Shown here one piece after another: positions 24,901 to 27,900 of a stretch of DNA of 64,000 bases. The stretch spans positions 682,001 to 746,000 of the forward strand of contig NW_026939884.1 in the NCBI RefSeq assembly GCF_032062105.1. Direction: 5' to 3'. Positions within the stretch are counted from its first letter, which is position 1. Every line of letters begins with the position of its first letter. The notes below the pieces were generated by a model, which was given only the letters and a program-made list of their open reading frames with translations, was not told the origin of the DNA and searched no databases. Position numbers and translations under genes: made by a program. This stretch comes from Saccostrea cucullata (lineage: Eukaryota).

Positions 24901-27900
24901 TTAGAATGAAGTGTTACATAGATGTGAATTTTTTCACAACTGCAGTTTGATTATATATATTTCGTTAATACATGTACTGATGTTCACACATTTTTATCAA
25001 CTTGAACCAAGATTTCAATAATTTATTACCCTTTTGTTGGTAAATACTGTAAGGCACTTTTCATTGCTTTGGCATCTAAGTCAATTTTTGTTCCATCCCT
25101 TTTTAAAAAAAAATTATGAAAGTCACCCTTGGATAAGTATAAATAAGAAACCTAAAAAAATAAGAAAGACGTGTATTTATCATCTATATATATCATCTAA
25201 TCTGAGTTTTATAACAAACAAGTAAAGGAAATCTTTTCACCTGAATGCAAAAATAGCATCTTTTCACCCGAGTATGACTAACTTCAAATAAAGGAAATCT
25301 TTTCACCTGAGTGTAAAACTAGCATCATCTCACCTGAGTGTAAGACTAGCATCCTCTCACCTGAGTGTAAGACTAGAATCCTCTCACCTGAGTGTTAGTC
25401 TAGCATTATCTCACCTGAGAGTACGACTAGCATCAACTCACCTAAGTGTACGACTAGCATCATCTCACCTGAGTGTAAGACTAGCATCATCTAACCTGAG
25501 TGTAAGTCTAGCATCATCTCACCTGAGTGCAAGACTAGCATCATCACACCTGAGTGTAAGACTAGCATTATCTCACCTGAGTGTAAGACTAGCATCATCT
25601 CACCTGAGTGTAAGACTTGCATCATCACACCTGAGTGTAAGACTAGCATCATCACACCTGAGTGTAAGACTAGCATTATCTCACCTGAGTGTAAGACTAG
25701 CATCATCTCACCTGAGTGTAAGTCTACCTGAGTGTACGACTAGCATTATCTCACCTGAGTGTAAGACTAGCATCATCTCACCTGAGTGTAAGACTTGCAT
25801 CATCACACCTGAGTGTAAGACTAGCATCATCACACCTGAGTGTAAGACTAGCATTATCTCACCTGAGTGTAAGACTAGCATCATCTCAACTGAGTGTAAG
25901 TCTACCTGAGTGTACGACTAGCATCATCTCACCTGAGTGTAAGACTAGCATCATCTCACCTGAGTGTAAGACTAGCATCTTCTCACCTGAGTGTAAGACT
26001 AGCATTATCTCACCTGAGTGTAAGACTAGCATCATCTCAACTGAGTGTAAGTCTACCTGAGTGTACGACTAGCATCATCTCACCTGAGTGTACGACTAGC
26101 ATCATCACACCTGAGTGTAAGACTAGCATCATCTCACCTGAGTGTAAGACTAGCATCTTCTCACCTGAGTGTAAAACTAGCATCATCACACCTGAGTGTA
26201 CAACTAGCATCATCTCACCCGAGTGTATGACTAGCATCATCTCAACTGAGTGTAAGTCTAGCATATTCACACCTTAGTGTAAGACTAGCATCCTCTTACC
26301 TGAGTGTAAGTCTAACATCATCTCACCTGAGTGCAAGTCTGGCATCATCTCACCTGAGTGTAAGTCTAGCATTATCTCAGCTGATGTAAGACTAGCGTCA
26401 TCTTACCAGAGTGTAAGTCTAGCATCATCTCACATGAGTGTAAGTCTAGCATTATCTCACCTGAGTGTAAGACTAGCATTATCTCAGCTGATGTAAGACT
26501 AGATCATCTCATCTAAGTGTAAGACTAGCATCATCTCACCTGAGTGTAAGTCTAGCATTATCTCACCTGAGTGTAACTAGTAAGACTAGCATCATCTCAA
26601 CTGAGTGTAAGTCTAACTCTCACCTGAGTGTAAGACTAGCATCAAGAAGAGGAAATGTCTGTGGATTTGGCATACCTCCTGCCATGGTGATCAGAGAGGG
26701 GTTTTCCTGTACTATAGCAGCTGTGACAATAGAAAATAATAAATATTCCCTGGTAAATCACTGTCATGCAGACTCTTGAAGGATTTTTCCTTAGCTGTTT
26801 CAGATTCACTTGTATGCATGCAAAATAGTATCTGTCCTCCCTCAAATTTCACTATTACCATACAATAAAGGTGCAAAAAATATTCTGACATTTTTATTCC
26901 AAACTTAGATTTTTTTTTCACTAATCTTTTTTTCTGTAACCAAGTAGTTAGTTAGTTATTTGTCTTTCTAAATGGAAAAAAGAACAAACATTCTCTGAAA
27001 ATTTTTATTATATCATATTATGTCGTTAAAATATTTTTCCTTAATTTTGATGCTTCTCAAAGTAACCCCACTGTTAAAGATGATCTACTATGTGAACTCT
27101 ACATGTACCTCAAGAGTGATACTCATAGAAATTGCTAATGCTTTATTTTGATAGATTCTGTACATGTGTATTAGGTTTCAAAAACCAAAAATTCAGGGTG
27201 TGAATCTGATAGTCTCCAGTCATTATGCTTTTTATGCCCCCCTAACCAAAGATTCAAGGGTATATAGTGTTTGTCCTGACAGTCAATATATTTGTCTTGT
27301 ATGTCTGCAGAAACCTTTCACCTGAAAGCTTGCTTGTAAGTTTTGAGTGGGTGAGGCTATGGCTTTTATATTTCACAGGGGTATTCCTTATGACATTAGA
27401 CCTTTATTATGGCACCACCAAATTTGACATCTTGACCTTGGAGTTTGACCCACTCTTACTAAAAAAATCCTAAATTTAACCTTGGCCATAACTTAAACAG
27501 TAGGTGCCAGGGTTTTCATACTCCACATGTATATTCATTGTGACAAGATCTTTCAATGGGGTATAAATATTTGTGACTTTTTGACCTTGATCTTAGAGTC
27601 TGACCCACTTTAAAAAAACTTAACCTTGGCAATAGCTTTGAACAGTTAGTACTAGACCTTTCATATTTCATAGGTGTATTTCTTGTGACAAGACCTTTCT
27701 TGGGATACCAATGATTTTGACCTTGAAGTTGGACTTGCATTTGAGAAACTGCAATCCTTGCTATAAGCTGCCATATGGGCACATCATTGTTTCCCAGATA
27801 TATCTTATTCATCTACTACCTACATGTAATTTAACCTACTAAAGAAACACATGAAAGCAATTTTTCACTGTATATCTTTATAGTTAACAGGTCACTTATG

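Follow-up and report, generated by a model that had tools for sequence, protein, structure and literature searches.

How does a gene find the right 5' splice site when nearly all of the intron behind it is made of copies of that site? The question is raised by intron 2 of a minus-strand gene in the window analysed here, 64,000 nt of DNA from Saccostrea cucullata. The host gene is AADAT, its closest named protein matches being oyster kynurenine/alpha-aminoadipate aminotransferases, and our model of it comprises 11 exons with GT-AG introns and an open frame of 423 aa (Table 1); intron 2 (26623-25099, minus strand) is 1525 nt long and of phase 2. Built on the first donor, the model shows 0 differences from the Saccostrea RefSeq protein (XP_062592736.1 / XP_062592737.1; isoform X2, P0114), and the other RefSeq isoform, X1, joins exons 2 and 3 in the same way. 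AADAT is single copy, exon 6 matching once in the assembly among 6 candidates scored, and a paralogue without the array, sought for comparison, was not found in that exon 6 search. N-termini like that of exon 1b also occur in S. echinata, C. virginica and O. edulis proteins, which as sequences point to two AADAT N-termini kept across oysters; targeting might differ between them. Upstream, at 30450-32700 (+), inspection by eye showed exon-like pieces of a second gene, which is transcribed from the other strand in head-to-head orientation to AADAT.

Table 1. Features of AADAT and its array (positions in the window), followed by arrays sampled elsewhere in the genome. A slash marks the exon-intron cut.
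Feature	Location	Strand	Basis or remark
AADAT coding exon 1a, 67 nt	29962..30028	-	model identical to RefSeq isoform X2 (P0114)
Alternative first coding exon 1b, 85 nt, in RefSeq isoform X1	28119..28203	-	run X2 contig covers 28119-28252
AADAT exon 2, 97 nt; final 20 nt form the exonic portion of the first unit	26624..26720	-	
Authentic donor CAG/GTGAGAGT, cut between 26624 and 26623	26616..26626	-	run X2 loose end continues as exon 3
In-frame TGA on read-through of first donor	26620..26622	-	
27-nt minisatellite, about 50 copies; core homogeneous, edges more diverged	25303..26644	-	TRF
Second copy, 23 nt (truncated), donor GT changed to TT, core 26601	26594..26616	-	
Higher-order block, 151 nt repeated exactly at 178 nt offset	25560..25888	-	TRF period 178
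Degenerate AT-enriched tail copies, cores 25268, 25241, 25202	25195..25302	-	
Non-repeat 3' part of intron 2 with T-rich authentic acceptor	25099..25194	-	
AADAT exon 3, 69 nt, both sides phase 2	25030..25098	-	
AADAT exons 4-11, frame open as far as stop	21917..24825	-	
DNA_pol_A (family A DNA polymerase) exon, donor-born array behind (L013)	G000 C720		Pfam
Glyco_hydro_38N (GH38 alpha-mannosidase) exon, donor-born array behind (L015)	G000 C1147		Pfam
5_nucleotid (5'-nucleotidase) exon, 60 copies (L018)	G000 C1646		Pfam
VWC exon, donor-born array behind (L025)	G000 C1158		Pfam, below curated cut-off
FERM_M exon, donor-born array behind (L035)	G000 C3228		Pfam, below curated cut-off
Arrays of 28, 54 and 62 copies, up to 2.8 kb (L016, L017, L019)	G000 C1411, C1453, C1751		exon-like stretch ahead, no Pfam match
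Acceptor-born array, 21-26 or more copies (L054, L055, L068)	G000 C1160, C3704		three places

The sequence-only reading of this DNA had reported about 50 tandem copies filling almost the whole 1.5-kb intron, and both statements hold. TRF delimits the array at 25303-26644 with a period of 27, 49.9 copies and 78% matches (further periods reach up to 178), a count of the core motif gives 54 sites from 26624 to 25202, three degenerate tail copies among them, and the array accounts for 1321 of the 1525 nt of intron 2 (87%), or 1392 (91%) when counted down to 25232. As had also been proposed, the unit joins the last 20 nt of exon 2 to seven intron-type bases, the array beginning 20 nt inside exon 2; GTGAGAT, however, is the ending of the consensus unit, and the real donor reads GTGAGAG. 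Likewise, the 27-nt period does correspond to nine codons, but nine units are of other lengths, so the array does not preserve one reading frame throughout. A coding role for it was considered and rejected, the gene-strand frames holding 34-66 stops. The longest open stretch on the opposite strand of the array amounts to 205 residues of repeat, and a search of intron 2 for poly(A) hexamers returned none.

In the 1.17-Gb assembly the 20-mer core is matched exactly 19 times and a 21-mer, with up to 2 mismatches allowed, 41 times, all within the AADAT array; either reversed control gives 0. This confinement rules out an origin from a dispersed repeat or transposon; the unit is found only at the AADAT locus and therefore arose at the end of exon 2. 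Full units differ from the consensus by a mean of 2.54 letters at the 5' edge, 1.38 in the core and 2.86 at the 3' edge, and blocks of 151 and 109 nt are duplicated exactly inside the array. From a DNA run of organism B (X5), a contig of ~66 nt (extent by arithmetic) covers the donor and copy 2 with one differing letter, at 26612, which hints weakly, at the level of sequence, at the repeat being present in a close relative too. Elsewhere in the window, four related 63-nt tandem arrays with a 21-nt subunit lie at 48127-48289, 51752-51919, 52215-52353 and 52979-53367 (TRF), and a decayed stretch at 14560-15290 (-) by eye resembles a retroelement reverse-transcriptase fragment.

Many of the copies look like usable donors on paper. 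Among the 53 sites downstream of the first, GT is kept in 45, AG/GT in 41 and the exact 9-mer of the real donor, CAG/GTGAGA, in 25. Counting back from the junction, exon 2 and the copies have 21 nt in common, beyond which exon 2 reads CTTCT and a copy GTGAGA. Scored against the U1 consensus, the real donor pairs at 8 of 11 places with 2 wobbles, most copies at 7 with 1 wobble, and 3 copies also reach 8. The supposed run of ~50 decoy donors following directly on the real one is thus largely there, save that 8 of the 53 lack GT and the nearest copy (26601) reads TT; because this second copy is truncated as well, the first intact rival donor is 26567, 57 nt downstream, and the next is 26540. It had also been suggested that the copies might sequester U1 snRNP; U1 is very abundant in cells, and given that abundance its sequestration by a single transcript is unlikely.

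The pattern of change along the unit bears on whether these decoys matter to the gene. G+1 is altered in 7 of 50 copies, to three different letters, positions -9 to -1 in 0-4 and positions +3 to +7 in 4-11. Selection against rival donors might be read into the G+1 changes and the loss of GT in the nearest copy, although positions +3 to +7 are just as variable as G+1. That selection disables copy 2 as a general rule is not supported: in 15 of the 16 exon-like arrays of our genome survey (see below) the second copy keeps its GT, and intact decoys are therefore tolerated. Inner copies of those arrays keep GT in 215 of 249 cases.

Which donor is used can be read from RNA. We mapped four runs of 22 (X1, X2, X5 and X10) on 26575-30400; X1, X2 and X10 behave as spliced RNA (X1 and X2 guessed as DNA, same sample), and X10 is the only run examined from X9-X22, which hold 5-7% of the words. 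The RNA evidence consists of assembled contigs, from which rare forms are dropped. In run X2, a contig leaves the genomic sequence at 26623 with at least 255 loose letters (median length 255), the next 30 of which are the start of exon 3. Run X1 has a contig of 490 nt in which the complete exon 2 (record 73-170) is followed by a further 320 nt without a break. Depth in the bin 26575-26702 equals exon-only cover in both X1 (34.3 x 80/128 = 21.4) and X10 (19.6 x 80/128 = 12.3); in X2 it is 81.5, which is not resolvable into exon-only cover. The contigs of these three RNA-like runs, which omit rare forms, hold no product of a downstream donor. The main AADAT transcript uses the first, most upstream donor. 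Asking RNA which donor is joined to exon 3 was the check that the sequence-only reading had put forward, and the X2 contig and the RefSeq protein, equal to the first-donor model, give the same reply. A further T-rich site, TTTTTTTAG/GT, lies at 25151-25170 (-), 53 nt ahead of the true acceptor of exon 3. Splicing to this site would put the transcript out of frame, and the X2 contig takes the true acceptor.

We consider it quite probable, then, that the array is a neutral minisatellite, grown by slippage and unequal exchange, in a gene whose observed spliced RNA uses the first donor. This had been the fallback of the sequence-only reading (slippage tolerated, the first donor winning), and it is now favoured by the contig join, the RefSeq protein and the precedent of human F7, discussed below. 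Intron 2 would be older than the array. A duplication across the donor would leave the original donor first, directly behind its own acceptor and exon, and a first-site rule such as that of F7 would keep the mRNA unchanged while the array drifts; the array would be tolerated because the most upstream donor is chosen. Later donors may be passed over because the first is the only one that completes a normal-sized exon with a real acceptor ahead of it, by exon definition or oriented scanning, and stray use of one would bring a stop at codon 56 and presumably clearance of the mRNA by NMD. The same process has likely produced more than 100 arrays at other donors of the Saccostrea genome.

That last estimate comes from a genome screen of the kind suggested alongside the original observation, for which we searched for three CAGGTRAG or AAGGTRAG words 14-40 nt apart and compared the matches with a reversed control. 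CAGGTRAG triples gave 1468 matches against 239 in the control (6.1-fold) and AAGGTRAG triples 842 against 202, the single word CAGGTRAG occurring 97,709 times against 37,940 (2.6-fold); the acceptor word exceeded its control 1.48-fold as singles and stood at 0.80-fold as triples. Loci were drawn from the first 100 matches listed per search. Among the matches listed, all 10 CAGGTRAG loci and 16 new ones of 18 AAGGTRAG loci make up the 26 donor-word loci sampled, and we took all 11 control loci and 20 of 21 acceptor-word loci (one dropped as a copy of another). A fixed rule for exon-like sequence (T-rich acceptor, open frame, GC step) passes 7 of 9 AADAT exons and 311 of 3162 random places (9.8%). 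By this rule, an exon-like stretch ends at the first copy of 16 of the 26 sampled donor-word arrays versus 3 of the 26 mirror ends; exon-like ends were found at 2 of 11 control loci and at 9 of 36 isolated donor words (16/26 against 9/36, Fisher p = 0.008; p = 0.013 at 14/23, with three duplicate or paralogous loci dropped). Pfam matches reach the donor in 5 of the 26 (Table 1). The screen thus does turn up further donor arrays, starting at an exon-like end in the 16 sampled cases. A PDB sequence search with the candidate exons of L016 and L028 gave no match. One sampled locus, L014 (G000 C1037:157525-158382), has donor words on both strands, CAGGTGAG on the plus and AAGGTGAG on the minus.

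Scaled by matches or by contig number, the sample extrapolates to roughly 130-170 exon-initiated arrays in the genome, a figure for the two words and the 14-40 nt spacing alone that duplicate haplotypes inflate. At the level of loci, 10 stand against 2 in the control among contigs up to number 2094, the 11 control loci reaching up to 5813; two of these 11 in fact involve donor words, namely L040, where the words are on the other strand, and L044, which begins at the donor of a Kazal exon (Pfam). Because matches cluster in few arrays, the evidence that donors carry more arrays than word frequency would give is suggestive only. Among the acceptor-word loci, 15 of 20 are arrays (again among the matches listed), and an exon-like stretch follows the last copy in 4 of these 15 versus 361 of 3420 random places, L055 being shortened by chaining. 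One acetyl-CoA carboxylase-like exon accounts for two of the four, and it is opened by the last copy of a unit that consists of a T-rich tract, CAG and the exon start (L054, L055 and L068), and Pfam gave no match on 23 frames behind acceptor-word arrays. Acceptor-born arrays exist, then, but look rarer than donor-born ones.

A bolder extension of these counts would have rock oysters carry hundreds of donor-born minisatellites, far more than acceptor-born ones, as a genome-wide class; in some, AADAT included, the nearest copies would leak splicing into NMD, and these unstable arrays would form a heritable pool of dosage variants. We think this unlikely; were it true, the choice of the first among many identical donors could be studied across a whole genome in a natural experiment.

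For AADAT itself, the corresponding proposal is that the decoys at 26567 and 26540 capture some splicing, that the resulting mRNAs are degraded on account of the TGA, and that alleles consequently differ in AADAT output. The stop is real: read-through of the first donor gives AGG TGA at codon 56 of 423, and any extension past that donor contains the TGA upstream of later junctions, as had been claimed. It betrays no special design, however, since at any phase-2 donor that begins GTRA the G completes a codon and TRA comes next, and read-through meets a stop at 3 of 3 phase-2 donors of AADAT. Leakage would find ample sites, with GT at 45 of 53 and the real 9-mer at 25, and the available text of PMC1557585 describes use of proximal pseudo-sites in IFI6 and CBS and cites a title that ties the CBS VNTR to lower activity. 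Furthermore, copy 2 has lost its GT in AADAT, but 15 of 16 other arrays have an intact second copy, the contigs seen hold no later-donor product, and leakage confined to proximal sites should depend little on total copy number. We accordingly regard allelic dosage tuning at AADAT as improbable.

Recursive splicing has a lower standing still. Ratchet points have an AG/GT layout, and the known ones sit in very long introns. In AADAT, the first donor would be spliced to an internal CAG, CAG/GT would be rebuilt, and intron 2 would be removed stepwise, most plausibly through 25241 (-), a degenerate tail copy with CAG/GT that has the best acceptor-like context of the array, 142 nt before the real acceptor. 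The sequence-only reading had seen the ratchet layout in most units, and AG/GT is indeed present at 41 of the 53 later sites; the 25241 site has 9 T in -20..-4 with no upstream AG, and the final mRNA would be identical, so the contigs are compatible with it. What is absent is an AG-free pyrimidine tract of acceptor grade: regular copies have 4-7 T in -20..-4 as against 7-13 in 10 real acceptors, and an AG falls inside the would-be tract in 51 of 53 sites as against 1 of 10 real acceptors. The copies being poor acceptors, recursive splicing is very unlikely. The array resembles ratchet points in AG/GT, which is also ordinary donor consensus, and departs from them in its lack of such a tract, its short intron of 1.5 kb and an AG that is a copied exon end. 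Two acceptor-word loci of the survey (L053 and L064; G000 C862 and C3200) have units with a branch-point-like CTAAT, a long T tract and CAG/GT, far nearer the ratchet-point layout than the AADAT unit; no exon was found behind either.

It is also conceivable that intron 2 was itself created by tandem duplication, a Rogers-type intron gain. About 90% of it is repeat-derived, and the human gene probably has one exon spanning oyster exons 2 and 3. Such a gain would misfit the boundary, because exon 3 starts GGATGGA and does not continue the unit with GTGAGAT, and the working acceptor sits in non-repeat, T-rich DNA; by the same token the 3' part of the unit is intron-derived. The Tegillarca model P0047 joins MAG to DGSK (one predicted model, among 72 of about 109 aligned rows), a join whose sequence suggests an acceptor before DG in another bivalve order. 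We hold such an origin to be highly improbable. Equally slight is the chance that the array was produced by the assembly or that its length there is badly wrong, since, for all that the assembly of 23,869 contigs contains duplicated stretches (L023/L024, L046/L048), the units hold many private variants in nested blocks and the organism B contig spans the donor and copy 2.

A neutral donor-born array would place AADAT among known company, and the array indeed joins the class of exon-intron boundary minisatellites to which F7 and the amphioxus 'mirages' belong. By the available text of PMC1557585, the class was defined with human F7 and also includes IFI6, CBS, LMNB2 and PDGF. In the 37-bp VNTR of F7 IVS7, only the most upstream of the identical donors is used (Borensztajn et al., 2006; PMC1557585, as available). 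AADAT is like F7 in having a first monomer that straddles the exon-intron border and a donor repeated further down the intron, with splicing from the most upstream of these sites. The two differ in scale and setting, with 5-9 copies and 4 exon nt in F7 against about 50 copies and 20 exon nt in a mollusc, and in that polymorphism and mechanism are shown for F7 whereas the AADAT array is known from one assembly. The arrays of IFI6, CBS, LMNB2 and PDGF intron 4 reiterate the donor in 10-25 copies, about half the number in AADAT, and that of LMNB2, by a cited title, covers most of its intron (PMC1557585, as available). In IFI6 (6-16) and CBS IVS13 the same text has the next two pseudo-sites used to some degree; none is seen used in the AADAT contigs, which omit rare forms. 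A substitution in the second repeat of CBS limits alternative splicing, going by a title cited there, and copy 2 of the AADAT array may act likewise.

Our literature search, with most subscription papers outside its scope, found no mollusc case and no genome-wide census, and the available text of PMC10078293 holds nothing on boundary-spanning units. What the analysis adds is the genome screen showing donor-born arrays to be common in the Saccostrea genome; the AADAT locus alone matters little, the arrangement being known from at least 5 human genes and several lancelet genes. If there are ~150 donor-born arrays, RNA-seq could measure over many loci how strictly splicing in an invertebrate keeps to the first among identical donors, and so many arrays could reveal whether donor arrays are tolerated more than acceptor arrays. 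Donor arrays might, in addition, serve as length markers, and they are likely to mislead gene prediction.

A further parallel is offered by the mirages of amphioxus, described in Adh3, troponin C, the globins BflGb6 and BflGb9, and PGBD5 (PMC3087553, PMC3902484). In the available portions of these papers, mirage units measure 10-160 bp, leave splicing undisturbed and can duplicate both 5' and 3' boundaries (PMC3087553, PMC3902484), with a homogenised core and excluded edges (PMC3087553). The AADAT array shares with them an invertebrate host, boundary copies in tandem, normal splicing and a homogeneous core between diverged edges. Mirages have been described for a handful of lancelet genes, whereas in Saccostrea, a mollusc, the rough genome-wide count suggests more than 100 donor-type arrays.
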